A stretch of 64,000 nt of DNA from a virus (lineage: Duplodnaviria > Caudoviricetes). The DNA lies in IMG/VR virus record IMGVR_UViG_3300020050_009513, positions 1-64,000 of that record. One strand, 5' to 3'. The position numbers and the translations under genes are program-made. The number at the start of each line of letters is the position of its first letter. Position 1 is the stretch's first letter. Below the pieces are notes generated by a model. That model searched no databases. It was not told where the DNA came from and saw only the letters and a list, made by a program, of their open reading frames with translations. Below, piece after piece: positions 11,138-41,063 of the stretch.

Positions 11138-11487
11138 ACACTTACTCCTTGACAAAACACTGCATAACATATATAGTTAAGAGAAACCCTTGCCTGTAAT
11201 AGTTCGGCCCATATCAAGGCAGCCCTGGGGTACAGAAGGTAGAGAGAAAAGGAATCCTACCTAACAGACGCCAACGTAGGTCTGTTCAGCCTTCTGTAAC
11301 GTGCATTAGGTCTATGTTAAACCTAACCATTATTAAGTTTCGCCACCACTTAGGGTATACTACTCTAATGGCAGTTTATTTAGAAACACGAGATAGGCGT
11401 TCAAACAAACTATACAACTGTATAACTTGTATTACAAACGTGTGATAGATACCGTTACTAATACATATATTTAAACATTACGCTGTA

Positions 11488-21584: not shown

Positions 21585-21754
21585 TCTTCCGCCATTCTGT
21601 CGATTTCAGTTTGGCGAAGGAAGGCTTCTCCAGCCTTCTTCCCCGCCTCGTCATATTCAGATGCCTTAGCGGTAGAAATCCCCGCGAGTACGAACATCAA
21701 CAGCAGGAACGTTAATCTTAAGACCCAATTTGTCAACGCTGTTCCCAACATCAA
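21476..21754 (-). CDS. exported or membrane hypothetical protein
   Basis: Signal-like FLLLMFVLAGISTAKA; overlaps neighbours, so limits are uncertain. Confidence 0.45.
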   Translation of the reverse strand: MMLGTALTNWVLRLTFLLLMFVLAGISTAKASEYDEAGKKAGEAFLRQTEIDRMAEEWVKHRVNSNIQKWVGYFAPVGKALSEKQVTVKWNF

Positions 21755-22460
21755 AGCCTCCTTGGGGTTGATTTTTTACTAGTAAAATCAAAGAATCTGC
21801 AAGGCCGTCATTGATAGCATCTTGAGATTCAAGCCAGTATTCGCTTTCCAAACGTGCCTTAAACTCTTTATAGTCAATGCCAGAACGTTTAGCTACTTCC
21901 ATATCCATACGATCAACTAGACGAGAGAAAGCTCCCAATTGACCGGACATCTGTTCCATAGTACCTTGAACCCCGCCACTGGCCGGATGAAACATAAGTA
22001 CACTACCCGGAGTCATGTAGCGGGTTTTGCCTACCTGGTGAATCTGAGCTGCCATAGAAGCGCACAAACCTTCACATACGGTATGAATAGTAACTCCAGA
22101 ATTTTTCATGAAGTTAATTAGTCGAGCACCTGCCAGAACACTACCGCCAGGACTGTTCAATACAAGGTAAATCTCATCCTCACCTCGAGACGCAGCCTCA
22201 ATGGCTTGCAAAGTAAGGTCTACTGTCTCGTCTACAATGGGGGTATTTAGGTAAATAACTTGGTCACCGTTTACACGGGCCGTTTTAGTTTTTACTTTTT
22301 TATCTTTAGTCAAATCCGCTGTTGCGGTTTGCTCAATTTTCAAAAGAGGTTCGGTAGTCTCTTTAGACTCGGTGTCCCGGCTTGTAAAAATTGCCGTAGC
22401 CACAAAAGCTACACCCAAATAACCGACAATAGATCCAATCAATAGCTTGTTCAGTTTCAT
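21666..22460 (-). CDS. membrane-anchored ClpP-like serine protease (S14/S49 fold)
   Basis: N-terminal TM; LNSPGGSV, CASMAA (Ser), LMFHP (His); start reassigned to MKLNKLL after AAGGAG. Confidence 0.85.
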   Translation of the reverse strand: MKLNKLLIGSIVGYLGVAFVATAIFTSRDTESKETTEPLLKIEQTATADLTKDKKVKTKTARVNGDQVIYLNTPIVDETVDLTLQAIEAASRGEDEIYLVLNSPGGSVLAGARLINFMKNSGVTIHTVCEGLCASMAAQIHQVGKTRYMTPGSVLMFHPASGGVQGTMEQMSGQLGAFSRLVDRMDMEVAKRSGIDYKEFKARLESEYWLESQDAINDGLADSLILLVKNQPQGGFDVGNSVDKLGLKINVPAVDVRTRGDFYR

Positions 22461-22478
22461 AAATCTCCTTATAAGATA

Positions 22479-22508
22479 ACTATAGCATAGGAAATATTTA
22501 AAAGTCAA
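22479..22508 (-). promoter_or_regulatory. sigma70-type promoter TTGACT-N18-TATAGT with extended -10 TG
   Basis: Direct match in the divergent intergenic region. Confidence 0.65.
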
Positions 22509-22905: not shown

Positions 22906-23351
22906 TGTCTTCTAATGTTTACGAAGTTATTTCTATTGATGATCTCCGAGAGCAGTACAAAGAGAAAATCAAAGCTAAAGATATCAAAGAGTTTGCTGCC
23001 GTGCAGCAAAAGCTTATTGAAGATTTATTGCTTCGTAACAAAGCTTTAGAAGATAAGCTACAATCTGCAGAGAGCATCCTTAAGGGTTTACAAAAACCTT
23101 CTGGCTTGGTTAATATTATGTCTGAAGAAGAACTCATCTGCGTAGAACAAATTCAAATCCTCAAAGGAAAGTCTGCTCAACGTGAGCTTTCTCTTGATGA
23201 AGTTAAACGCTTAGACATTCTCATTAAGAATTTACGTCTTATTCGAGATAAGTCCACCGAAGCCATCGACGTTACAGATTATTCTGATATGAAGGAGGCC
23301 GATCTTGTCGCACTTATCACCGGAACAGGAAAAGGTTCAGAAGAAGGCTAA
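22905..23351 (+). CDS. putative terminase small subunit
   Basis: 148-aa helical protein immediately upstream of terL; positional only. Confidence 0.45.
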   Translation: MSSNVYEVISIDDLREQYKEKIKAKDIKEFAAVQQKLIEDLLLRNKALEDKLQSAESILKGLQKPSGLVNIMSEEELICVEQIQILKGKSAQRELSLDEVKRLDILIKNLRLIRDKSTEAIDVTDYSDMKEADLVALITGTGKGSEEG

Positions 23352-24789
23352 GGAAACACTCTGGCGCAAAGCCAGTATTGCTAGCTGGAAACTCGATGTT
23401 AATCAAAAAGAAATGTATAAGTTTGCCAGAGAGAAACCGGACAAAATTATTGTCATTGGATCTTCTCGTCAGTTAGGTAAGACCTATTTCCTTGTAACTC
23501 TGGCTTTAGAGGAGTGTCTCCGGACCCCGCATGCCATTGTTAAGTTTATTGCTCCCAAAGTTCGGGACATTAAGCGTATCATTGCCCCGCTCATTCGGGA
23601 AATCACTGACGACTGCCCCAAAGATCTACGGCCTTCCTATAAAACCCAAGAGAACATCTTTCGTTTTCCTAATGGAAGCGAGATCCAGTTAGCTGGGACA
23701 GATAATGGACATGCCGAGTCCATCCGGGGTAACAAAGCCAATCTTTGTATTATCGATGAGGCTGGATTCTGTAATGATTTAGCCTACATCGTAAATAGTA
23801 TTTTAATTCCTACGACAACAACAACGGGTGGAAAGATCATTATGGCATCTACTCCCTCCAAGTCACCCGACCATGACTTCATGCAATTTATGAAGCAGGC
23901 TGAAATTGAAAATCGATTCATTAAAAAAACAATCTTTGATAACCCGCGTCTTACTAAAAAAGACATTGATGACCTAGCAGAAGCCATTGGTGGATATGAG
24001 TCTGTAGATTTTAAACGAGAATATCTAGTAGAAATCATTACTTCCATTGATGACGCAGTTGTTCCGGAATTTAATTCTGACGTTAAGCCTGAGATTATCA
24101 AAGAATGGGAGCGACCTGCCTTCTATGATGCTTATGTTGGGATGGATATCGGTGTAAAGGACATGACTGTTGTCCTATTTGGTTACTACGACTTCCTTAC
24201 TGCCAAACTTATCATTGAAGACGAGGTTGTTCTTAGCGGACGTAGTATGCTTACCGATAATCTGGCTGCAAAAATTGCAGAGACAGAAGCTCGGCTTTGG
24301 TTTAATAAGTATACAGGAGAACCTAAGACTCCGTTCTTACGCGTATCAGATAATAATAACCTAGTTCTATTAAACGACTTAGCAGGGTCTCACGGTCTTA
24401 CTTTTCTCCCAACTCGCAAAGACGACAAGGATGCGGCTCTTAATAATATGCGTATGCTTATTCGAAATAAGCGAATTATCATACACCCACGCTGTAAAAC
24501 GTTAATTTTCCACCTTGAGTCCGCCATCTGGAACAATGATCGTACTAAGTATGTCCGTAGTGCAGTAGATAAAAGTCACTACGATGCCGTGGATGCTCTT
24601 GTCTACTTGTGTCGTAATATTAATTATAATAAAAATCCCTATCCAGCAAACTATGACTATTTAGGTAAGGGTCCGATGTTCCACAGAGATCCACTCCCCA
24701 AAGGGGATAATCAATTTGAGCAAGCTTTGAATAAGATGGTCAAAGAACGCAACCCTTTCGGAAGTACGCGAAAGCTCAAGAGATATTAA
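23305..24789 (+). CDS. terL: terminase large subunit
   Basis: Walker A-like SSRQLGKT, Walker B CIIDEAG, MASTP; RNase-H nuclease GMDIG and HYDAVDALVY. Confidence 0.95.
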   Translation: MSHLSPEQEKVQKKAKETLWRKASIASWKLDVNQKEMYKFAREKPDKIIVIGSSRQLGKTYFLVTLALEECLRTPHAIVKFIAPKVRDIKRIIAPLIREITDDCPKDLRPSYKTQENIFRFPNGSEIQLAGTDNGHAESIRGNKANLCIIDEAGFCNDLAYIVNSILIPTTTTTGGKIIMASTPSKSPDHDFMQFMKQAEIENRFIKKTIFDNPRLTKKDIDDLAEAIGGYESVDFKREYLVEIITSIDDAVVPEFNSDVKPEIIKEWERPAFYDAYVGMDIGVKDMTVVLFGYYDFLTAKLIIEDEVVLSGRSMLTDNLAAKIAETEARLWFNKYTGEPKTPFLRVSDNNNLVLLNDLAGSHGLTFLPTRKDDKDAALNNMRMLIRNKRIIIHPRCKTLIFHLESAIWNNDRTKYVRSAVDKSHYDAVDALVYLCRNINYNKNPYPANYDYLGKGPMFHRDPLPKGDNQFEQALNKMVKERNPFGSTRKLKRY

Positions 24790-24804: not shown

Positions 24805-26823
24805 GTGTTTATGTCAGACTCGGTGTATTTCGCAGCCAAGGAAGCGGATAAAACAGCCGGAATTTTGCTAAGTAAGGCAAATGGCTGGTATAATCAATTA
24901 CAAACTAACGGGTATCTCGACAAAGTTCGTGAGATGTGGTTAGCCTACCATGGAGCCTATCAAACAGGTCCGGGTGCTGCCCACATGATTACCTTTGGTG
25001 GTGAGCAAGGTGAGCTAGCACAGATGGCGGTGAACCATTTGCGATCTATCGCCGATAATATCATCACTATGATTACATCCAGCCGCCCTGCATTTCAGGC
25101 TCGTGCTACAAATGGTGATAGTAAGAGTATTGTACAAGCTACGCTTGCAAATAACCTACTTGATTACTACATGCGTGAAAAACGTTTGGAGAAATACCTT
25201 CGTACAGCCATTCAATATGCTGTAGTATTAGGTAGCGGTTATGTTAAAATGGAATGGAACTCCACTACTGGAGAAATTTACGACACAAATGAAGAGACTG
25301 GCGCACCAATTTATGAAGGTGACGTTGCGTTCTCTAACCTGTCTCCTTATGATGTTGTATTTGATACAACTAAAGAGTCGAGTCTTGGTCATGACTGGGT
25401 ACTAACACGTACCTTTAAAAATAAATTTGACATTGCAGCTAAGTATCCCGAACTTGAAGGTCGTATTAAAGGTCTTCAGACTAAAAATCAATTGCTCCGT
25501 TATCGTATGGACTTGATGGCTTATGAGGATACAGACGATGTTCCCGTATATGAATTCTATCACCGTCGTAGCGAAGCTTTGCCAGATGGTCGATATCTTT
25601 TGTTCCTAGAAGATAATCTAATTCTTATTGATAGTCCAATGCCTTATAGACAGTTACCCGTGTATCGTGTATCACCTAGCGATATCCTTGGTACTCCTTA
25701 CGGCTATACTCCGATGTTCGACCTGTTACCCATTCAAGATGCGGTTAACAGTTTGTACAGTACTATCCTGACTAACCAGCATACGTTTGGTGTACAGAAC
25801 ATCTATGTTCCTCGTAATGCCGATATTCAATTGAAATCTCTTGAGGGTGGATTGAATATTATTGAAGGTAATAGTGGTGCGGGAAAACCTGAACCTCTAA
25901 ACTTTACACAAACTCCTAAAGAAGTATTTGAGTTCCTTCAAATGCTTGAGCGACAGATGGAGATTGTATCGGGAGTCAACTCGGTTGCTCGTGGTAACCC
26001 GGAAGCTTCGCTTAAATCCGGATCTGCTCTTGCCATGGTGCAATCTATGGCACTGCAGTTTATTTCTGGTATTCAACAACAGTACATTCACTTGATTGAG
26101 GACGTTGGTACAGGTCTTGTGAATATGCTTAAGGACTTTGCTGTTGTCCCTCGCATTGCTATTATTGCAGGGGAAACTCGTAAGCACTACGTAGAAACTG
26201 AATTTACTGGTGACGACCTTAGTATGGTAAGCCGTGTAATTGTTGACGTAGGAAATCCTATTAGTAAAACTACTGCCGGACGTATGCAGATGGCGACGGA
26301 GCTTATCCAATATGGTATTGTATCTACTCCTCAAGAGTATATGACAGTACTTAATACTGGAGATTTGAGCGGTATTACTGATGATACTCAGGATGAGCTT
26401 GATAATATTCGTCGCGAAAATGAAACTATGCTTAATGGCGGTCAAGCCATTGCTATCGGTATTGATCAACACAGTGTACACATTAAACGACACAAAGCCC
26501 TTCTTTCCGATCCAGTTATTCGTTCTCAACCTGGAGTTAGAGATCAAGTCCTTGCTCATATTATGGAGCACGTAAATCTTTTACGTACTGTTGACCCTTC
26601 TCTTCTTGCAATTATCGGAGAACAACCAATTGGACCTATCGGAGGAACGCCTAACAACCCAGTTCCCGGTCCACAGAATCAATCTATGCCTGTAGATCCG
26701 GCTAGCATGAGTCAGGAACAACAACCGTTACCTAATATGCCATCCATACCTACAGTACCTGCTGAAGCTCTCGCCAATCCCGAGGCTCAGCAGCAGGCTA
26801 TGGGTAATGTAGCACCTCAGTAA
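24805..26823 (+). CDS. portal protein
   Basis: 672 aa directly after terL; P22-like features (ALVLGSGYVKMEW, SGVNSVARG..SGSAL); Pro/Gln-rich tail. Confidence 0.85.
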   Translation: MFMSDSVYFAAKEADKTAGILLSKANGWYNQLQTNGYLDKVREMWLAYHGAYQTGPGAAHMITFGGEQGELAQMAVNHLRSIADNIITMITSSRPAFQARATNGDSKSIVQATLANNLLDYYMREKRLEKYLRTAIQYAVVLGSGYVKMEWNSTTGEIYDTNEETGAPIYEGDVAFSNLSPYDVVFDTTKESSLGHDWVLTRTFKNKFDIAAKYPELEGRIKGLQTKNQLLRYRMDLMAYEDTDDVPVYEFYHRRSEALPDGRYLLFLEDNLILIDSPMPYRQLPVYRVSPSDILGTPYGYTPMFDLLPIQDAVNSLYSTILTNQHTFGVQNIYVPRNADIQLKSLEGGLNIIEGNSGAGKPEPLNFTQTPKEVFEFLQMLERQMEIVSGVNSVARGNPEASLKSGSALAMVQSMALQFISGIQQQYIHLIEDVGTGLVNMLKDFAVVPRIAIIAGETRKHYVETEFTGDDLSMVSRVIVDVGNPISKTTAGRMQMATELIQYGIVSTPQEYMTVLNTGDLSGITDDTQDELDNIRRENETMLNGGQAIAIGIDQHSVHIKRHKALLSDPVIRSQPGVRDQVLAHIMEHVNLLRTVDPSLLAIIGEQPIGPIGGTPNNPVPGPQNQSMPVDPASMSQEQQPLPNMPSIPTVPAEALANPEAQQQAMGNVAPQ

Positions 26824-32565: not shown

Positions 32566-33068
32566 GTAAGATATTTATAGGATTTTCATATCCTCATAAA
32601 TTTAAAATTGGAGCTGCAGCCATAGCTTGGTGGCTGTCTACTCCATATTCTCACGTGTATATTAGATTTGAAAGTGAAACTATGCCGTCTTCGGTGTATC
32701 ATGCGGCTCATGGCATGGTACATTTTACAAGTTACGCTAGATTTAAAGAGCAGAATAAATGTGTACATGAGTATGAGGTAGCTGTTACTACTACACAACG
32801 TCGGCAAGCTTTAATACAATGCATGGAACTAGCTGGAATAGAATATAGTACTACCGAGCTAGTGAATATTCTAATGACTGATTTATGTAATTCATTTGGC
32901 CATAAGCTAAGTACTACAAACTCTAAAGGTTACATATGCTCTGAGTTAGTCGGTGAATTTTTAATTCAACTTGGAGCAACTTTCAATAAACCTACCCATT
33001 TATTAACTCCGCTAGATATAAAGCAAGGATTGACTACGTGGCAAGAATCACTCTTATACCGGACATAA
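32562..33068 (+). CDS. permuted papain-like (NlpC/P60, YiiX-type) enzyme
   Basis: YSHV (His) early and YICSELV (Cys) late, the permuted order; TPLDI near the end. Confidence 0.75.
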   Translation: MSKIFIGFSYPHKFKIGAAAIAWWLSTPYSHVYIRFESETMPSSVYHAAHGMVHFTSYARFKEQNKCVHEYEVAVTTTQRRQALIQCMELAGIEYSTTELVNILMTDLCNSFGHKLSTTNSKGYICSELVGEFLIQLGATFNKPTHLLTPLDIKQGLTTWQESLLYRT

Positions 33069-33178
33069 AAGATGCTGGGCACAAAAAGCTCATCGCTAAA
33101 AGCAAACGACATAATTGGCTTATAGCCCTCTGTTCGCTTCAATTTGTTTTATTAACATATTTAATTATGAGGTAACTA

Positions 33179-33778
33179 ATGGATTTTTCAAAACTAAAGC
33201 AGCTAATGCAAAATGCTGGTACTGCAGTTTCTGATTGGAAACAAGGTATGGATAAAAATGCAGATCAAGCAATGGAAGACATGGCTCGTTCTTCTGTTAT
33301 GGTAGGTAGATCACAGGATTATCAACCTACAGAACAAGAAATGTTGGATGCCCGTAAAATGGTAGAAGATTCCATGAGTATGGGTACGGGTGCTGTAGGC
33401 TCTGTAAAGATGCTTGGTGCCGGTGAGAATGCTGCCCAAATGCTTATGCGTAAAGCTGCAGAAGAAGCTGGTACGGGCGTTAAGATTGCAGGTAGAGGCA
33501 AGTCTGCTGCGGAAATGATTAAAGAAGGTCAGGCAGCAAAAGCTGCAGCTAATCCTCCTGTCCCTAAAAAGACAGCCGCCGAACTCTACAGAGACGCTAA
33601 AGCAAGCGGTAAGTCGGTAATGAATATTGATGAGATGCGTGCAAACCCTGTTAAAGAACCTATGAATATGGGTAAACTGCAACAAGAAGCTACTGGTCTT
33701 GTTGATGATGTCTCAGAAAAACTTAAATTTCGCCGTCTCCAAGAACTAATGGAGCTTAATAAGCTCAAAGGTAAGTAA
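33179..33778 (+). CDS. low-complexity putative internal head protein
   Basis: Ala/Met/Lys-rich; FSKLKQLM at N-terminus and FRRLQELM at C-terminus. Confidence 0.65.
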   Translation: MDFSKLKQLMQNAGTAVSDWKQGMDKNADQAMEDMARSSVMVGRSQDYQPTEQEMLDARKMVEDSMSMGTGAVGSVKMLGAGENAAQMLMRKAAEEAGTGVKIAGRGKSAAEMIKEGQAAKAAANPPVPKKTAAELYRDAKASGKSVMNIDEMRANPVKEPMNMGKLQQEATGLVDDVSEKLKFRRLQELMELNKLKGK

Positions 33779-33897
33779 TGGCTGATTATCCTGGTTCTAA
33801 TAGTGAAGCTACTATGGAAGGTAACGAGAAAGAAACCTACGCAAAAAAGGTTGCTCGTTTCTATAAGCTTCGTAAGCTATTGAAAGAGAAGAAATAA
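33778..33897 (+). CDS. 39-aa putative internal head peptide (not in ORF track)
   Basis: MADYPGSNSEATMEGNEKETYAKKVARFYKLRKLLKEKK; TAATG overlaps both sides. Confidence 0.7.
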   Translation: MADYPGSNSEATMEGNEKETYAKKVARFYKLRKLLKEKK

Positions 33898-34496
33898 TGG
33901 ATGATACATACGCACGTCTACTAAAATCTATTCTCGAAAGTAAAGAAGGGCGCAGTGAGACTGTATACCCTGATGAGAAGGGTAATCCTACTGTTGGTGT
34001 TGGGACTAATCTAAACAGCCCAGAAGGTCTGCGGGATTTAGAACGTGCCGGTATGTCTCCAGAGCGCGTTCTAGCAGGAGAGAGTGTTCCTACTGAAATC
34101 CAGGACGCTGCTATGAACAGTGCCATTAAGCGTAAAGAGGCAATGCTTCAAGATAAACTTCCCAATGCTCAGCTTAAAGAAAATGAGCGCGCTGCTATTA
34201 TGTCGCTTATGTACAATAGCCCAGCCCTGGTTGGGCCTCGTCTTACTGAGATGCTGAACAAAGGCGATAAAGAATCTGCAGCTAAAGAGATTCTTCTAAA
34301 CTCTAATAAAAATAAAAGTCCCGGCCTTGCTAGCCGACGTATAGAAGAGAGCGCGATGTTCCGTGGAGATAATAGCTTGCCACCTATTAACATGGAGGAA
34401 GAGGCTAATCTTAAGGGTACTCTTAGTGGCATTGAGAATAAAAACGAAAAAGAACGCGTATTTAAGCGTTTATCTGAGTTATTACGGAGTAAGTAA
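33897..34496 (+). CDS. phage lysozyme (GH24-like), probably virion-associated
   Basis: E-x8-D-x5-T triad in KEGRSETVYPDEKGNPTVGVG; AAIMSLMYN; GLASRRIEE. Confidence 0.85.
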   Translation: MDDTYARLLKSILESKEGRSETVYPDEKGNPTVGVGTNLNSPEGLRDLERAGMSPERVLAGESVPTEIQDAAMNSAIKRKEAMLQDKLPNAQLKENERAAIMSLMYNSPALVGPRLTEMLNKGDKESAAKEILLNSNKNKSPGLASRRIEESAMFRGDNSLPPINMEEEANLKGTLSGIENKNEKERVFKRLSELLRSK

Positions 34497-35344
34497 TGGC
34501 TGGGCCTATTTCGTCAAAACGTGTATTTAAACTTACTGAAGACTACTTTAAAGCTATAGCTGATCGTGCGGCTAGTAGATCTCATGCAACAGCGGTTCCT
34601 ATTTTTGCAGATGATACTATAAAAAATAAAGCTAAAGAAATGATGAGTGAGGAGACTGTTACTAGAATCAATCCTACCACACAGGAAAAAGAATACCTTC
34701 TATTTAGAGGACCTTCTGAAAAAGATATTACCAATCATATGAAAGATGGTAAATTTATTAGTCAACAAGCCTCCAGTTGGACAACTAGACCGGATACTGC
34801 TAGTGGGTATGCTAATAGTCATTCTGCTAACCTAGAGGGTACACCAATTGCAGCATGGGTACCAGAGTCCAAAGTAAAGAATTTCTTACCTGCTAATTTT
34901 GAAAAAGCTTCTGATGTTCCTGCGCATAGTGAAGTTATTGTTGATAGTGTAAATCTTCCATTTGATACTTTTAGTAACCATAGAATCGATAAAAAAATGC
35001 CATTTGATCAATCTATTGGTAAGCTATTTGGAAATCCTAAAAAGTTAGCGGCTATTGCTCCTCTGTCAATAGGATCAGAAACATTAGATGCTGCTAAAGA
35101 TTTAGCTTCTCAATACGTACAAGGTAAAGATTGGGTATCTGAAAAACTTGCACAGCAATTAAATCTCACTAAGAATTCAGAAGTAGAAAAACAAATTAAG
35201 AATGTAACTGATATTGCAGTAGATCCCACTATGTTAATTCCAGGTGTCGGTGGTATAATGACGGGTCCTGCTCTAGAAATGTTGGCAGAGTCTAATAAAA
35301 ACAGCTTTTCTAAGATAAAAAACTTATTAAGTAATAAAAAGTAA
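34496..35344 (+). CDS. ADP-ribosyltransferase-fold protein, putative head cargo
   Basis: R-S-E motifs LLFRG, ASSWTT, HSEVIV; C-terminal DPTMLIPGVGG and FSKIKNLL. Confidence 0.6.
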   Translation: MAGPISSKRVFKLTEDYFKAIADRAASRSHATAVPIFADDTIKNKAKEMMSEETVTRINPTTQEKEYLLFRGPSEKDITNHMKDGKFISQQASSWTTRPDTASGYANSHSANLEGTPIAAWVPESKVKNFLPANFEKASDVPAHSEVIVDSVNLPFDTFSNHRIDKKMPFDQSIGKLFGNPKKLAAIAPLSIGSETLDAAKDLASQYVQGKDWVSEKLAQQLNLTKNSEVEKQIKNVTDIAVDPTMLIPGVGGIMTGPALEMLAESNKNSFSKIKNLLSNKK

Positions 35345-35439
35345 ATCTAACATATATTATTATAAGGCTTACCCATACCGGATGGCCACTTAAACTCGCT
35401 ACCCTGTCTAAGTACAGGATGTGACACAAGGAGAATAGT

Positions 35440-36405
35440 ATGTCTGACTCTGCTGCTGCAGCCGCTAGTGCTGCGCCCGCTTCCACTGGTGCCGAATCTA
35501 CCGGCGCTGAATCCCAAGAACTTGCTGCTGAAGGTACTGAAGGCATTATTGAAGATGACGCTTCAGATGTACTTGCCGAAGAAGCCAAGGCTACCGAGGA
35601 AGCCCTTAAAAACCTCAAACGCAAATATAATGTTAAGGCTAATGGGAAGTCTCGCGAAATCGAGCTTGACCTGTCTAACGATAAACAAATCCAAGAATAC
35701 CTATCTAAGGCCGCTGCAGCTGACGAGAAATTCGAAGAAGCTGCCAACATGCGTAAGGCAGTTGAAGAGCTTGTACGAGAGCTGAAAAGCAATCCTAAGG
35801 CTATTCTGAGCCACCCTTCGATTGGTTTAGATCTTAAGACATTTGCCCAAAGCATCATGGATCAAGAGCTGGAGGATATGTCCAAGACTCCTGAGCAGAA
35901 GCGTATTGAGGAAATGGAACAAAAGCTTAAACAATACGAAGAAGACAAGAAAAAACTGGAAGAAGAGAAAACTACGGCTGAACGGGCTCGTATTCAAGAA
36001 GAACAGTTTCAAAAGCTGGATGAACAAATCACTGATGCTCTGTCGAAATCTGAACTTCCTAAGTCTCCTTATGTACTTAAACGTATTGCTGACACTATGA
36101 TTGAGGCTGTTAATCTGGGGTATACAGACGTATCTGTTGAGCAAATTCTACCCTATGTAGAACAGCAAATCGTAGGTGAAATCAATAGGTTATTCGAAGA
36201 AGCTCCGAGCGCAACTGCAGGCAAACTTATGGAAAAGTTAGTCGGTAAAAAGAACCTAGATTCTTACCGCAAAGCTCGTGTTTCTAAAGCTAAAACCACA
36301 GCTTCTGCTTCTACAGTTAAAGATTCGGGTGCTTCCTCTAAGACTGCTGAGAAAAAAGAAGACGTTAAACCTGTCCGATTTAAGGACATGTTCGGACGTT
36401 TCTAG
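35440..36405 (+). CDS. capsid scaffolding protein
   Basis: Acidic N-terminus, long coiled coil, basic tail; directly upstream of major capsid. Confidence 0.8.
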   Translation: MSDSAAAAASAAPASTGAESTGAESQELAAEGTEGIIEDDASDVLAEEAKATEEALKNLKRKYNVKANGKSREIELDLSNDKQIQEYLSKAAAADEKFEEAANMRKAVEELVRELKSNPKAILSHPSIGLDLKTFAQSIMDQELEDMSKTPEQKRIEEMEQKLKQYEEDKKKLEEEKTTAERARIQEEQFQKLDEQITDALSKSELPKSPYVLKRIADTMIEAVNLGYTDVSVEQILPYVEQQIVGEINRLFEEAPSATAGKLMEKLVGKKNLDSYRKARVSKAKTTASASTVKDSGASSKTAEKKEDVKPVRFKDMFGRF

Positions 36406-36571: not shown

Positions 36572-37825
36572 ATGGCTGAATACGGTGGCGCGAATAACAT
36601 GGCAACCCTGAACGGGTTGTTTAAAGAACGCTATGCTGATAAAATGGAGCGTCTGATTCCTGATGGAAAGAAGCTCTTGAATGAAATCCCCTTCATCTCG
36701 AAGGACAAACAACCCGGTAATGCTTATCACCAGCCCGTAGTTTTGGGTATGGAACATGGTGTTACTTTTGCTGATGACACCGAAGGTGCATTTGAGTTGG
36801 CAGCTCCTATCGCTGGTCAAATCAAAGATGCAGTTGTCAAAGGTTACCAATTGGTTCTGCGTTCGGTTCTGTCATACAGTGCCGCTTCGCGCGCAATGGG
36901 TCCTGGCGATCGCGCTTTCGAAGATTCGACTAAGTTCTTGGTTGGAAACATGCTGGATTCTATTTCGAAGAAACTCGAAATCGAACTTCTGTATGGTCAA
37001 ATGGGTTACGCTGTAGTTACCAATGCTGAAGCTGCTGCTGCTGGCGTTGTTATCGAACTGAACGCTGCTGACTTTGCTCCCGGTATCTGGGCTGGTGCTG
37101 AAGGTATGAAACTGGACGTTGTACGTACTGGTGCCTTGGTTCCCACTCTGTCGGGTGTCAATGCTATCACCGTTTCTTCAGTTGATTTGACTGCTCGTAC
37201 CATTACTGCGGATCTCCCGGCTGCTTTGGTTGCTGGCGATGTTCTGTATCACAAAGGTGCTTTCGGTAAAGAATTTGCTGGTATCCACAAAATCCTGACC
37301 AACACTGGTACTCTGTTCGGTATCTCGGCTGCTACCTACACTCTGTGGAAAGGTTCGGCTTTTGCTCCCGCAGTTACTTCGGTATTGTCGTTTGCTATCA
37401 TGCAGCAAGCTATCAGCCAAGGTGTTGCTAAGGGTCTGGACACTGACGTAATGGTCATGGTTAACCCCGGTCACTGGGACGATTTGCTCACTGAGCAAGC
37501 TGCTCTGCGCATGTACGATTCTTCGTACAAGTCGGACACTGCTGAAAGCGGATCGAAGTCGATCAAATTCCATAGCCAAAACGGTATGGTTGAGATCACT
37601 CCCTCGATTTACGTTAAAGAAGGCTACGCTTACGTACTCTGCGTTGAAGACTGGGTTCGTGTCGGTTCGACCGATATCACCTTCAAACGTCCGGGTCAAG
37701 GCGATAACTTCTTCCGTGAACTGGAAGACCACGCTGGTTTCGAACTGCGTTGTTACACTGACCAGGCGATCTTCTGTAGTAAGCCCGGGCGCTCGATAAT
37801 CATTTCTAACTTGAAAGTATCGTAA
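36572..37825 (+). CDS. major capsid protein
   Basis: 417 aa after scaffold; strongly biased codon usage; AAGGAG RBS; followed by terminator. Confidence 0.85.
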   Translation: MAEYGGANNMATLNGLFKERYADKMERLIPDGKKLLNEIPFISKDKQPGNAYHQPVVLGMEHGVTFADDTEGAFELAAPIAGQIKDAVVKGYQLVLRSVLSYSAASRAMGPGDRAFEDSTKFLVGNMLDSISKKLEIELLYGQMGYAVVTNAEAAAAGVVIELNAADFAPGIWAGAEGMKLDVVRTGALVPTLSGVNAITVSSVDLTARTITADLPAALVAGDVLYHKGAFGKEFAGIHKILTNTGTLFGISAATYTLWKGSAFAPAVTSVLSFAIMQQAISQGVAKGLDTDVMVMVNPGHWDDLLTEQAALRMYDSSYKSDTAESGSKSIKFHSQNGMVEITPSIYVKEGYAYVLCVEDWVRVGSTDITFKRPGQGDNFFRELEDHAGFELRCYTDQAIFCSKPGRSIIISNLKVS

Positions 37826-37856: not shown

Positions 37857-37885
37857 GCCGGGGGTGCAATGCTCCCGGCTTTTTT
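37857..37885 (+). terminator. rho-independent terminator after major capsid
   Basis: GCCGGG-loop-CCCGGC followed by T6. Confidence 0.9.
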
Positions 37886-38564
37886 ATTTTACAAATCTAT
37901 TTTTCTTCCAGTTGTCCTTGGCCCACAGAGGTTGAAGATTAGTATAGTGTGTAGCTTTTAGAAACTGCTGTCTATTTGTTAAATCAAAGCTAGATAATGG
38001 AATAATATGATCAATATGCCAACCAGTTAAGTTATGATTTTCCCAAGTCATTCCGGGCTGCCATTTTGATTCTATATACAATTTAAATTGCTCTATAGAA
38101 CAGCCTAGATCGGCAACAGCAGATCCTTTTTTTGTATTATTTTTTATACAGTTAGCAATGCGTGCTCTAAGTAAAGCTTTAAGTCTATATTGTAAATCAG
38201 TTTTCTTTTTGTCTACGTGGTATCGACTACGTCGAGCTTTTACTTCAGGACGCGAATGATACTCTTTCTTTTGTGCGGCAATATGCTCAGCATTATCATC
38301 CCTATACTTAGCCTTACGCTGAGCTATCTTTTCTGCATTCTTTTTATCATACTCTTTACTACGAGTACGTACCGCATCTCTGTTTGCCTGCTTGTAGGCA
38401 TTTGTTTTAGCTTTAATCTCTTCTTTGTTCTCTTGATATTTAGCTGCAGATTTGGTTTTACGACAAGGCTTGCATAGGCTATCAACACCAAAAGCCCCCA
38501 TAGCTTTCTTATGAAAAGCTTCGAGAGGCAGAGATTGTTTACAGCACCTGCATACCTTGGTCAT
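37884..38564 (-). mobile_element. free-standing HNH homing endonuclease
   Basis: CRCC..CKPC Zn motif; GMTWEN..WHIDHIIPLS..YTNLQPLWAKDN; antisense inside the structural operon. Confidence 0.85.
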
Positions 38565-39774: not shown

Positions 39775-39988
39775 GGTGAAACGGGAGGTGCGCTACTACC
39801 TCTATCTTGTACTTCGAATCTGGCGGGTTCCCATGGTGCCCGACCACCTAGATTATGAATATAGGAAAGTTACTCCTACATATCAGCCTCTAGCGTCATC
39901 CCAGTGCGTGTCTCCAGAACCGACTATCCTGCCCACCTCGCGGTTTAAACAATGCAGGGTCCACCTCATCTACCACGCCGCTCGTTTC
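39775..39988 (-). ncRNA. tRNA-shaped structured ncRNA, copy B
   Basis: Terminal stem GAAACG(A)G/CCGUUUC then ACC; GCGUG/CACGC; hairpin GAGGU-AGUAGCGC-ACCUC; 12-nt identity CTGGAGACACGC with copy A. Confidence 0.75.
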
Positions 39989-40023
39989 AATATAACAGTA
40001 ACATATTCATGTATGGAGGTCAA

Positions 40024-40404
40024 GTGATTTCTAGGGCTGAAGTTCTTATGGGCCGTGATAAAGACTATCCGTTGGATAAAGAGCAAGAAGCAAACCTTGC
40101 AATCCTGCTGGAACGTGTTAATAAGCTTAGGGCTCTATATAACAAACCAATGACTGTCACTAGCGGGTACCGCCCTGCTGCTATCAATGCCGGCGTAGCT
40201 GGTGCTGCTAAGCGTTCTAATCACATTCTGTGTGCTGCCTGTGACTTTAGGGACAGTGATGGTGCTATCGACGCCTGGTGCCTAACTAACCTAGATAAGC
40301 TGGCAGAAATCGGCTTATGGCTGGAATCTCCTGACCATACGCCTAATTGGTGTCATGTGCAGATCTTTCCTCCCAAGTCAGGTAATCGGGTATTTAAACC
40401 TTAG
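40024..40404 (+). CDS. endolysin, peptidase M15 family
   Basis: VTSGYRP..N..V.GA..SNH..C.A.D ... WCHVQ; GTG start after GGAGG. Confidence 0.85.
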   Translation: MISRAEVLMGRDKDYPLDKEQEANLAILLERVNKLRALYNKPMTVTSGYRPAAINAGVAGAAKRSNHILCAACDFRDSDGAIDAWCLTNLDKLAEIGLWLESPDHTPNWCHVQIFPPKSGNRVFKP

Positions 40405-41063
40405 TCAATATAGCGAAAGACCAATCCTTTCAAAGACTTCATCTTTCCACGACATACTGCAGAGATACTACTTCGGTCGCAATTAAGTTCTGCTGCGGCA
40501 TCCTGAATACAATCATAGGTTTTACCATTAGTTTCACAGTAGACTTTACGACGAGTGGGTGAAGGTTTACCCCAGAATTTGCTTTTCTCTCCGGACCAAA
40601 GCTGAGAAAGGTGAACTTTTTCCTCAGCAGTACGAGGGCGAAGTTTTTTTCCGGTCATGGCTTTTCGTTTAGCTTCAATTTGCTCTGGAGACTGTTTGTG
40701 TCCTAAGGTATGTTTATTTCCTAAAAGAGCCTTACTAATTTTATTACGAGTTTCAATTGTAATCTCAAAAACCCCCCCTCCATACGATTTATTATATCCA
40801 TATATAGGATCAATACTCTTATAATTGCGAATAAATTCTTGTTCTTTACGATTAAGCTCTTCTAGAGATTCTGCGGCGGCAATACGTTCAAATAAAAAAC
40901 TATCTTCTCCATATTTAATCCAAGCTCTCTGTAGATGTTCATTAAAATGAGTACCTTTTCTCAGATAATATCGATGATTAGCCCAGCGACGAGCTAATGT
41001 AGAAGAGGTTTGTCCAATATAAACTTTATTATTGATTTGATTTGTAATTTTGTAAATAAACAT
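40401..41063 (-). mobile_element. GIY-YIG homing endonuclease with NUMOD3/NUMOD1-type modules
   Basis: FIYKITN..NNKVYIGQT; GYN..GG; C-terminal DAAAELNCDRSSISAVCRGK. Confidence 0.9.

Follow-up and report, generated by a model that had tools for sequence, protein, structure and literature searches.

A short terminal sequence tag on unrelated proteins encoded beside the capsid genes of an uncultivated podovirus lineage: a candidate signal for recruitment into the prohead

A four-gene cassette upstream of the scaffold and capsid genes

In the window, i.e., the whole analyzed stretch of 64,000 nt, four genes (ORF1 to ORF4) form a cassette at positions 33179-35344, directly 5′ of the genes for a scaffold-like protein and the major capsid protein (MCP). 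The features of this region, together with a ClpP-like gene located elsewhere, are the following:

33038-33175, plus strand: ORF for a small tail-anchored membrane protein, 45 aa, GTG start, neighbor of the cassette
33153-33160, plus strand: TAACATAT, leader or promoter-like motif 5′ of ORF1
33179-33778, plus strand: ORF1, 199 aa, low-complexity protein rich in Ala, Met, Lys, and Gly; tags at codons 33185-33208 and 33728-33751
33778-33897, plus strand: ORF2, 39 aa; residues 1-27 (33778-33858) mimic the MCP N-terminus; tag at 33859-33882
33897-34496, plus strand: ORF3, 199 aa; GH24 lysozyme domain, residues 1-161 (33897-34379), two-helix extension, tag at 34461-34484
34496-35344, plus strand: ORF4, 282 aa; ART-like domain, residues ~20-165 (34553-34990), second module, residues ~183-267 (35042-35296), tag at 35306-35329
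35348-35355, plus strand: TAACATAT motif 5′ of the scaffold gene, closing the cassette unit
35440-36405, plus strand: scaffold-like protein, 321 aa, acidic N-terminus, tail h-[KR]-D-F-F-[GK]-x-[LF]
36572-37825, plus strand: MCP, 417 aa, phrog_14242 (E 4.6e-14); a copy of its first ~25 residues is present in ORF2
21666-22508, minus strand: ClpP-like gene, outside the head module, PF00574 (E 6.5e-28)

The original prediction had described four coupled genes in front of scaffold and capsid, and the reading frames, their overlaps, and the coordinates were confirmed. At positions 33778, 33897, and 34496 the TAA stop codon and the next ATG share an A (TAATG), and the distance from the end of the cassette to the MCP gene is 1.2 kb. 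The TAACATAT motif occurs 11 times in the window and only on the plus strand, compared with an expectation of 3.65; none of 100 shuffled sequences reached 11. Nine of the copies precede the start of a late gene, six of these at a distance of 20-30 nt.

An endolysin candidate (39952-40404, phrog_894) is encoded separately from the cassette, and therefore, the lysozyme of ORF3 need not be the lysis enzyme. Scans of the head module with Pfam and PHROG revealed no protease gene between terminase and capsid.

A shared tag at the protein termini

All four cassette proteins carry the motif F-x-[KR]-[LI]-x-x-L-[LM] at the C-terminus, and ORF1 has a further copy at its N-terminus. These five copies had been predicted correctly, apart from the fact that ORF1 extends four residues beyond the tail quoted for it. 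The strict pattern matched seven times when all 649 ORFs (six frames, minimum 30 aa) of the 76.6 kb genome were scanned, and five of the seven matches are located in the cassette, all of them terminal. A match near the N-terminus of the ClpP-like protein was rejected as a tag, as it resembles a signal peptide or a membrane anchor. When a profile was generated from the other loci, the four cassette proteins and one further ORF among 134 ORFs reached a score of at least 14.

The tag is characterized by an invariant aromatic residue and Leu/Ile with the spacing i, i+3, i+6, i+7. Its net charge ranges from +1 to +6, and runs of Lys follow the core; the C-terminal tag of ORF1 has a charge of +2 and contains two Glu. 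The hydrophobic moments of the window tags are 0.22-0.59, with low values in two of five cases (0.22 and 0.27), and several tags are weakly amphipathic and 8-10 residues long. Identical tag residues are encoded mostly by different codons, which shows that the constraint acts on the protein, as had been proposed; for the same reason, a DNA repeat or junction was rejected as the origin of the tag. The tag core lies 12-35 nt 5′ of the next start and thus outside the Shine-Dalgarno region, and no coupled gene follows the tag of ORF4.

The T7-like core (ejectosome-like) proteins of the genome lack the tag. In T7 itself, nothing alike was present when the genes were read, and a similar end of gp13, gp6.7, or gp7.3 was rejected.

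The bodies of the four proteins

ORF1 did not match any entry of Pfam or PHROG. In its homologues P0066-P0068, which are 64-81% identical in the alignment, both terminal tags are kept, while residues 20-70 have diverged. A homology between ORF1 and P0029 is not claimed, because it would rest on a single short common stretch with an E value of 0.028.

ORF2 had been regarded as almost nothing but the motif, which turned out to be incorrect. Alignments and blastp showed that its first ~27 residues resemble the N-termini of MCPs, with E values of 7.6e-4 for the MCP of the same genome and 5.7e-6 for that of the related locus L070. Similar peptides of 34-49 aa are encoded in L021/L022, L041, L081, L083, and L053, and they could likewise be aligned to their cognate MCPs. 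The alignment of the MCP N-terminal arms includes a conserved K-E-x-Y-A-D-K stretch. In P22, the N-arm of the coat protein is the element that is bound by the basic terminus of the scaffold (PMC9965877).

For ORF3, the prediction of a GH24 lysozyme was borne out by three lines of evidence. The protein matched PF00959 with an E value of 1.7e-12 and 48.2 bits (curated cut-off 22.3). The AF2 model (pLDDT 90.6) had the fold of a lysozyme, with VIA Z scores of 16.0 to 9kbs_B over 144 aa at 2.9 Å, 15.7 to 6et6, and 13.8 to P22 lysozyme. The Glu-Asp-Thr catalytic triad (E17, D26, T32) is invariant in five orthologues. Complete lysozyme chains align to residues 1-161 of the model only, and the terminal tag, which is located behind this domain, is present in four of four orthologues. 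The terminal helix was placed confidently by AF2 (pLDDT 86-93), and because of these high values, it may be packed against the enzyme instead of protruding freely. Among the tagged proteins, the lysozyme was the only one with a PHROG match.

ORF4 was considerably more difficult to assign, as neither Pfam, including its ADP-ribosyltransferase (ART) models, nor PHROG contained a match. Word-index protein searches retrieved only ORF4 itself and P0002, and scans of viral contigs with both proteins had zero matches, whereas an exhaustive profile search yielded 64 remote homologues in two groups. R-S-E-like motifs are present: the Arg and the Ser-Trp-Thr (Ser-x-Thr) are conserved, and the second Glu is retained. 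At the third ART motif, the homologues have E-x-E, while ORF4 and P0002 have H-S-E. The AF2 model of the N-terminal domain (pLDDT 71-94) had no Foldseek match at E ≤ 0.001, and most of the weak top matches were ARTs. With VIA, the Z scores were 6.7 for TreX (98 aa, 3.2 Å), 6.5 for KptA, 5.5 for LT-A, 5.4 for Arr, 5.3 for Scabin, and 5.2 for diphtheria toxin, all of them below the caution line of Z 8; all beta-rich fold matches were ARTs. The N-terminal domain probably has an ADP-ribosyltransferase fold in its predicted structure. The original assignment to this fold is moderately supported: the Arg and Ser motifs and the type of the fold matches argue for it, whereas the low Z scores and the missing match to the Pfam ART models do not.

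The second, conserved module of ORF4 ends in a Gly-rich hydrophobic stretch and is common to P0029-P0064, most of which have an N-terminal tag. P0002, which is 59% identical to the enzyme domain of ORF4, has neither the tag nor the second module. The genomic contexts of P0002 and P0029-P0064 were read at loci L098, L101, and L103.

Distribution of the tag in related phages

The occurrence of the tag was analyzed in 80 related uncultivated phage loci, in which the interval from the portal gene to the scaffold gene was defined as the slot. A strict regular expression turned out to be too narrow for the relatives, with six matches in slot proteins versus four elsewhere. Therefore, the five window tags were converted into a BLOSUM profile, which was used with a threshold of 14. 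Scores of at least 14 were reached by 63 windows at C-termini and 44 at N-termini of the 80 loci, while composition-preserving shuffles yielded 5-7 and 2-8, respectively, an about tenfold difference. The tagged proteins number 101, belong to 57 sequence clusters, and are distributed across 59 loci. The tag was found in 33 of 305 slot proteins and in 30 of 1348 other proteins (Fisher 5.5e-10); of the interior windows of slot proteins, 7 of 753 reached the threshold. Many of the tagged proteins outside the slot are further small proteins of the virion module, and the tag is confined to the virion gene module.

The consensus of the family reads [RK]-F-x-K-[LI]-K-x-[LM]-[LM]-K-K and is positioned 2-6 residues from the C-terminus or 1-3 residues after the initiator Met. 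The C-terminal tags of the original prediction are thus real, but in the relatives either end of a protein can be used. As expected for homologues, the orthologues of ORF1, ORF2, and ORF3 retain the tag; P0002, the one close homologue of the ORF4 enzyme domain, lacks it.

As had been anticipated, the corresponding locus of relatives encodes further tagged proteins, which are unrelated and have cargo-like bodies. They include ART-PolyVal enzymes (PF18760) and DUF5872 proteins. In L098 and L101, an N-terminally tagged ART-type gene is located between a tail-tube B-like gene and genes at the position of the T7 internal virion proteins. A MuF domain (PF04233) or a portal-fused targeting domain was absent from ORF1 to ORF4 and from the tagged relatives that were scanned. 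Like the 45-aa ORF next to the cassette, a conserved gene for a small tail-anchored membrane protein always adjoins the tagged genes; in L021, L023, L025, L029, L070, and L103, it encodes 41-62 aa, with a hydrophobic stretch near the C-terminus. PHROG contained no match in this case.

In a phage collection, no DNA match to the genome and no match for ORF4 or P0056 was found. The MCP had one distant match, an unannotated record of a Silvanigrella phage with 30% identity, and for the portal there were distant matches only.

Scaffold and capsid as candidate partners

In the related loci, 79 ORFs encode homologues of the scaffold-like protein; they are invariably located just 5′ of the MCP gene, and directly after the portal gene where slot genes are absent. 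Both the MCP and the scaffold-like protein are candidates for an interaction with the tag, the former as its receptor and the latter as its partner or competitor. The original prediction implied a P22-like mimicry of the scaffold terminus. A consensus was built from 65 unique scaffold tails, and the tails scored 0.4-7.8 on the tag profile (threshold 14). Simple scaffold mimicry is thus unsupported, and an identity of scaffold tail and tag was rejected: the tail motif is different, and nothing beyond a loose hydrophobic spacing is common to both. The tails of the lysozyme orthologues look intermediate between tag and scaffold tail, which is true for no other tails.

Proposed function and alternative explanations

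We propose that the tag is a portable docking signal that recruits accessory proteins into the prohead of this uncultivated podovirus lineage with a T7-like organization; we regard this as the most likely explanation, at about even odds. The short basic helix with its hydrophobic stripe would dock accessory proteins in the assembling prohead without proteolytic removal. The tagged genes would be transcribed together with the head assembly genes and coupled to them in translation, and their products would become trapped in the shell via a conserved internal site, for which the acidic N-terminal arm of the MCP, the acidic scaffold, and the portal/core are candidates. Upon infection, the tagged proteins would exit together with the DNA. 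The targets after ejection would be the cell wall for the lysozyme and host proteins for the putative ADP-ribosyltransferase. That the tag binds a head component and that the tagged proteins are encapsidated and ejected are thus steps that we infer. The effector-like bodies (GH24 lysozyme, ART-like fold, ART-PolyVal, and DUF5872) were counted in favor of packaging; ART-PolyVal takes its name from the polyvalent proteins; approximately 35% of these are encoded by phages, and the phage-encoded ones are thought to be packaged into capsids (PMC5512222). Further points in favor were the specificity of the tag within the genome, its recurrence and slot enrichment in the relatives, its retention by orthologues with diverging bodies, the second gene position in L098 and L101, the separate endolysin candidate, the N-arm copy in ORF2, and the known short capsid-targeting peptides. 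Counted against it were the absence of the tag from P0002, the low hydrophobic moments, the confidently placed helix of ORF3, the mismatch between scaffold tail and tag profile, the lack of the tag in the core proteins and in T7, and the adjoining membrane protein gene.

That gene is also one of the reasons to consider that the tag might be no capsid address but an amphipathic helix of the MinD/FtsA kind that anchors proteins at the inner membrane. Such a location could serve lysis or envelope remodeling by the lysozyme, a membrane-associated assembly of proheads, or an action at the membrane after entry. The tag resembles the helices of MinD, MinE, and FtsA in being short and basic, in having a hydrophobic stripe, and in its location at one or the other terminus (PMC6158289), the E. 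coli MinD tail resembles by eye the tails of the lysozyme orthologues and the scaffold, and the Gly-rich hydrophobic end of the second ORF4 module would also fit. However, the MinD tail scored only 5.4 on the tag profile (threshold 14), and several tags are short and weakly amphipathic. The tagged genes are located within blocks of head and internal-protein genes and not beside the endolysin candidate, a cytoplasmic tether would bring no obvious gain for an ART or for a lysozyme without signal peptide, and the copy of the capsid N-arm in ORF2 would be left unexplained. We regard membrane targeting as rather unlikely, although it is an alternative to be taken seriously. The N-arm mimicry would also be in line with the tag being a handle of assembly factors, i.e., secondary scaffolds or chaperones that bind the scaffold or the capsid protein transiently and leave with the scaffold, without being packaged in the mature virion or injected. 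The two tags and the low-complexity body of ORF1 are reminiscent of a cross-linking scaffold, and cassette and scaffold are co-expressed behind one TAACATAT unit. Such a function would account neither for a handle on host-directed enzymes (the lysozyme and two types of ART) nor for tagged genes among those for internal virion proteins, and it appears improbable.

The charge of the tag and the Lys runs behind its core could also indicate a tail that binds DNA or neutralizes charge in internal head proteins and has no specific protein receptor; internal proteins of phages are stored amid densely condensed DNA in the heads (PMC7697877). But the aromatic residue and the Leu/Ile spacing would not be needed for DNA binding, and the C-terminal tag of ORF1 has the low charge and the two Glu mentioned above, which makes this explanation very unlikely. 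An artefact is extremely improbable, whether it is attributed to chance, to composition, to the duplication of a DNA junction, or to a constraint that the following coupled gene imposes through its ribosome-binding site. It is true that, in ORF1 to ORF3, the codons for the final 2-4 residues coincide with part of the following gene's Shine-Dalgarno site and that Lys-rich tails are common in AT-rich phages. However, the counts exceeded those of shuffles preserving the tail composition tenfold, and the orthologues keep the tag. The Shine-Dalgarno explanation was rejected, because the tag core is located 5′ of the respective region, ORF4 has no follower, and N-terminal tags exist.

A more far-reaching version of prohead docking, which we consider unlikely, would be that interchangeable effectors (two types of ART, the lysozyme, DUF5872 proteins, and dozens of uncharacterized proteins) are swapped in and out of the heads of a large podovirus lineage via a tag that, similarly to encapsulin cargo peptides, docks at either protein end and independently of a protease on the MCP N-arm, with ORF2 as a decoy or adaptor that tunes the number of open sites. 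If this were true, podovirus cargo would have its first consensus packaging tag, possibly with an evolutionary link of phage cargo loading to the encapsulin targeting peptides.

Comparison with known systems

How accessory and ejected proteins are recruited into the proheads of short-tailed phages is poorly understood. To our knowledge, no portable signals for prohead recruitment other than the N-terminal ones of T4 and P1 DarB are known, and a consensus packaging signal for podoviruses was not found in the literature searched. The tag resembles, by analogy, three known types of capsid-targeting signals: the capsid-targeting sequence (CTS) of T4, the signal of P1 DarB, and the encapsulin targeting peptides.

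The T4 CTS is exclusively N-terminal, binds to the scaffolding core, and is cleaved off by the prohead protease. It is a short, portable terminal peptide on unrelated proteins (IPI-III and Alt) that loads them into the prohead for injection (PMC9024508, PMC5512222). The tag described here is likewise one short terminal peptide on unrelated bodies, and T4's also include an ADP-ribosyltransferase (Alt). In contrast to the CTS, it is C-terminal on all four cassette proteins, with the additional N-terminal copy in ORF1, and can be at either end in the relatives; furthermore, the head module has no protease gene, a cleavage motif is not found beside the tag, and the sequences are not similar. In the case of P1, the first 30 residues of DarB suffice to bring a reporter into the capsid, and the phage injects anti-defense proteins (PMC9024508). 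The DarB signal is N-terminal and no consensus has been reported for the Dar proteins (PMC9024508), whereas here a clear consensus is present on dozens of unrelated proteins.

Encapsulin targeting peptides are terminal peptides of about 10 residues on diverse cargo that dock on the interior of an HK97-fold shell without proteolysis (PMC10960027, PMC8346489). The tag shares with them the conserved terminal peptide on unrelated proteins and the proximity of the genes to that of an HK97-fold shell protein. However, the consensus is different, and encapsulins are cellular compartments without DNA, portal, and ejection.

Proteases that share a C-terminus with the scaffold (lambda C/Nu3, herpesvirus UL26/UL26.5, and the HK97 protease) are examples of non-scaffold proteins that are carried in by a scaffold-like tail. 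In P22, the basic C-terminal helix of gp8 attaches to the coat protein of the procapsid via acidic residues in the N-arm (PMC9965877). The present lineage differs from this type in that the scaffold tail, h-[KR]-D-F-F-G, is a motif different from the tag. Phage effectors, including ARTs, are also carried in the head as MuF fusions or polyvalent proteins and delivered with the DNA (PMC5512222). The ART-PolyVal domain of tagged proteins in the relatives is in line with this, but those systems use a whole MuF or portal-associated domain or a giant polypeptide, whereas small single enzymes with a 10-residue tag are encoded here. MinD and FtsA share with the tag a short basic amphipathic helix at either terminus (PMC6158289), which in the tag is a predicted one; they are cellular division proteins, whereas the tag occurs in the context of virion assembly genes, and the MinD tail is below the profile threshold.

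A consensus tag of 10 residues on about 100 proteins makes the question of loading directly testable with peptides and GFP fusions. If it functions as proposed, the tag would be a sequence rule for spotting injected effectors, and probably anti-defense proteins, in metagenomic phages, and phage particles could be loaded with foreign proteins by means of this minimal handle. If membrane targeting were true instead, it would represent a common localization signal linking head genes to the membrane. The combination of the capsid N-arm copy and the tag in ORF2 points to a specific candidate receptor.

Late gene order and the ORF1-ORF4 cassette

A cultured close relative of the phage was not found (source IMG/VR record of 76.6 kb, its first 64 kb being the window; estimated completeness 91%). 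The phage collection yielded no DNA match to the window, a single capsid match at 30% identity, and only distant portals. The late genes are arranged as follows.

Late genes of the window
23305-24789, +, large terminase (phrog_2, E 3e-38)
24805-26823, +, portal (phrog_156, E 5.6e-25)
after the portal and before the cassette, +, fibre-like genes
33179-33778, +, ORF1
33778-33897, +, ORF2
33897-34496, +, ORF3
34496-35344, +, ORF4
after ORF4, +, scaffold-like gene, 321 aa, acidic
after the scaffold-like gene, +, major capsid gene (phrog_14242)
downstream of the capsid gene, +, genes of 325 and 1146 aa, in the position of the T7 tail-tube genes
after this pair, +, genes in the position of the T7 internal virion proteins
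39952-40404, endolysin candidate, separate from ORF3 (phrog_894)

The sequence TAACATAT occurs 11 times in the window (3.65 expected), in every case on the + strand, at 11165, 22516, 24787, 27494, 33153, 35348, 36411, 39999, 41116, 46420 and 51634. Nine of the 11 copies precede the start of a late gene; six lie 20–30 nt upstream of it, with an A/T-rich spacer and then a Shine-Dalgarno site in between. It resembles a late promoter or leader motif of a phage, dividing the late region into units, and the cassette looks like one such unit bounded by it.

The terminal tag in the window

The four ORFs, their three TAATG overlaps and the TAACATAT copy at 33153 were all present in the sequence. The quoted C-terminal tails were also found, but ORF1 extends four residues past the tail given for it. 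The strict pattern F-x-[KR]-[LI]-x-x-L-[LM] has seven matches in the 649 six-frame ORFs of the genome, and five of these are termini of the four cassette proteins. Identical tag residues are mostly encoded by different codons, in agreement with the original observation that the DNA differs. The tag core precedes the ribosome-binding site of the following gene, and the ORF4 copy has no coupled gene behind it. Chance, DNA repetition and a start-site constraint are therefore excluded as the origin of the tag.

A further strict match lies near the N-terminus of a ClpP-family protease (21666-22508, −; PF00574, E 6.5e-28), encoded on the early strand outside the head module. It was rejected as a tag, as the protein starts with a stretch resembling a signal peptide or membrane anchor, to which the match seems to belong. 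The sole further protein of the genome with a tag-scoring C-terminal tail is encoded by a 153-aa early-region ORF (2037-2498, −; score 16.4 with a profile from other loci), which could be a chance match or an early tagged protein.

Distribution of the tag in related phages

The proteins that carry the tag are accessory members of the virion module; the tag is portable and under selection. From 137 matches of a capsid-protein alignment search, 80 related uncultivated phage loci were sampled, with genes called simply as longest ORFs. Terminal windows were scored with a BLOSUM profile built from the five tags of the window, and a score of at least 14 counted as a pass. In the slot between portal and scaffold, 33 of 305 unique proteins passed at the C-terminus, compared with 30 of 1348 ORFs elsewhere (Fisher 5.5e-10), while 7 of 753 interior windows of slot proteins passed. 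Many matches outside the slot are small proteins farther down the virion module. When all + strand ORFs were scored, 63 windows passed at the C-terminus and 44 at the N-terminus, versus 5–7 and 2–8 after composition-keeping shuffles. The 101 tagged proteins, about one tenth of which are expected to be false calls, group into 57 sequence clusters and come from 59 of the 80 loci. The tag lies 2–6 residues before the C-terminus or 1–3 residues past the initiator Met, with the consensus [RK]-F-x-K-[LI]-K-x-[LM]-[LM]-K-K, which is partly circular because the windows were picked by similarity to the window tags.

Homologues retain the motif: the three homologues of ORF1 (64–81% aligned identity) have a tag at each end, while the stretch following the N-terminal one has diverged, and a terminal tag is present in all four lysozyme orthologues of ORF3. 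Unrelated cargo-like bodies in the relatives also carry it, among them ART-PolyVal (L077, L016), DUF5872 (L083, L049) and one that weakly matches Peptidase_M91. Two loci, L098 and L101, encode an N-tagged protein with an ORF4-type module between the tail-tube B-like gene and the next genes, at the T7 internal virion protein position, and the L098 copy includes an ART-PolyVal-like stretch as in the homologous proteins P0032 and P0056. L103 has a tagged-gene cassette in the slot used by that of the window.

Recurrent genes and peptides (L numbers, related phage loci)
ORF4-type second module: L098:6981-8285; L101:7233-8282; L103:3936-4913
capsid N-arm copy plus tag: window 33778-33858; L021:8659-8781; L041:2070-2219; L081:304-411; L083:7052-7162; L053:3503-3607
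M-P-x-K-S-K family: L029:2670-2831; L049:4993-5160; L045:16446-16625; L086:10664-10867; L072:17429-17611; L079:660-812
small tail-anchored membrane protein: window 33038-33175; L021:8510-8656; L029:6108-6233; L070:7234-7380; L025:2220-2366; L103:4913-5059

The tagged proteins of the cassette

ORF1 had no family match. ORF2, originally described as almost only the motif, holds more than that: in peptides of this type (34–49 aa), the first half reproduces the N-terminal arm of the cognate capsid protein and the second half is the tag. Equivalents occur in at least five further lineages (at least six with the window), and in four of six cases the peptide is closer to the cognate capsid N-terminus than the family median. 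Such peptides could be a decoy or adaptor for a capsid N-arm binding site.

ORF3 is an intact GH24 lysozyme, as had been proposed, on the evidence of PF00959 (E 1.7e-12), the lysozyme fold, and Glu17, Asp26 and Thr32, which are invariant across its orthologues. In VIA, the AF2 model (pLDDT 90.6) matched two Acinetobacter muramidases (Z 16.0 and 15.7) and P22 lysozyme (13.8), and complete lysozyme chains aligned to residues 1–161 only. The last two helices of the model, tag included, are an add-on to the lysozyme.

The N-terminal part of ORF4 (residues ~20–165) matches domains within proteins of 500–2400 aa. It has conserved Arg, Ser-Trp-Thr and Glu motifs, with H-S-E where homologues have E-x-E. 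Foldseek with the fair AF2 model (pLDDT 71–94) gave no significant match, the weak top rows being mostly ADP-ribosyltransferases. In a Foldseek-independent search the Rhs ART toxin TreX was best (Z 6.7, 98 aa, 3.2 Å), followed by KptA, heat-labile enterotoxin A, Arr, Scabin, diphtheria toxin and pertussis toxin. The originally proposed ART fold is therefore probable from model and motifs, short of proof.

Residues ~183–267 of ORF4 (window 35042-35296) form a second conserved module, with the core Q-L-[ND]-L-[ST]-x-[DN]-K ... D-P-x-N-x-I-P-G-x-x-G and a Gly-rich hydrophobic end, for which neither Pfam nor PHROG gave a family. Ten other small proteins have it, most of them tagged N-terminally (P0029, P0032, P0035, P0047, P0049, P0050, P0056, P0058, P0061, P0064), and P0056 also holds PF18760 ART-PolyVal. 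The module is portable and forms the C-terminal end of otherwise differing proteins.

Possible functions of the tag

Recruitment of tagged accessory proteins into the prohead would best fit as the function, and we give it about an even chance. The analogies are with the T4 CTS and the signal of P1 DarB (PMC9024508), with encapsulin targeting peptides (PMC10960027), and with head-delivered effectors such as Alt and polyvalent proteins (PMC5512222). Unlike the T4 CTS, the tag stands at the C-terminus or at either end and has no cleavage site beside it, and the head module lacks a protease gene, the only ClpP-like gene being located elsewhere. Two findings count against packaging: P0002, the closest homologue of the ORF4 enzyme domain, has no tag, and the terminal helix of ORF3 is placed confidently by AF2 and might pack on the enzyme. 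The T7-like core proteins encoded by the phage carry no tag and nothing similar is present in T7 itself, so the tag marks add-on cargo and not the ejectosome.

The suggested likeness to the terminal helix of P22 scaffold holds only loosely. The scaffold tails of 65 relatives share a different motif, h-[KR]-D-F-F-[GK]-x-[LF], and score 0.4–7.8 on the tag profile, below the threshold. Tails of some lysozyme orthologues look intermediate. In P22, acidic residues of the coat N-arm are bound by the basic C-terminal helices of scaffold (PMC9965877), and a conserved K-E-x-Y-A-D-K stretch occurs in the capsid N-arm of this lineage. The best available hint thus points to the capsid N-arm as a putative tag receptor.

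As the main alternative, the tag could be a helix that targets proteins to the membrane. By eye it resembles the tail of E. coli MinD, and a conserved gene for a small tail-anchored membrane protein always adjoins the tagged genes. However, MinD scores 5.4 on the tag profile, amphipathicity is weak in two window tags, the genes lie in a virion-assembly context, and the capsid N-arm copy in ORF2 would be unaccounted for. Lesser alternatives are that the tag serves as a transient handle of assembly factors or simply as a DNA-binding tail. The original reading as a packaging tag is partly supported, and the tag family is classed with the capsid or compartment targeting peptides.

Additional observations

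The small tail-anchored protein (41–62 aa) has a basic N-terminus and a single C-terminal hydrophobic helix; it could be holin-like or a membrane partner of the tag. Another family, of 50–67 aa, begins with M-P-x-K-S-K-[AS]-Q-x-R and ends with the tag. Two scanned members (L029, L045) had no Pfam match, and its genes are located either between portal and scaffold or several kb past the capsid gene. In L103 (3635-4913), the gene for an N-tagged ART-PolyVal-like protein that ends in the second module appears divided into two overlapping ORFs (111 and 325 aa), as might result from a frameshift, a sequencing error or gene decay.

The capsid gene of the window is uninterrupted; behind it come an HNH-like ORF (37884-38564, −) and a GIY-YIG-like ORF (40401-41063, −). 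In several relatives (L003-L006 and L015-L017, from the same contigs as L021, L022, L027 and L028), an inserted ORF with a GIY-YIG-like start interrupts the capsid gene, which suggests an intron or homing endonuclease insertion.
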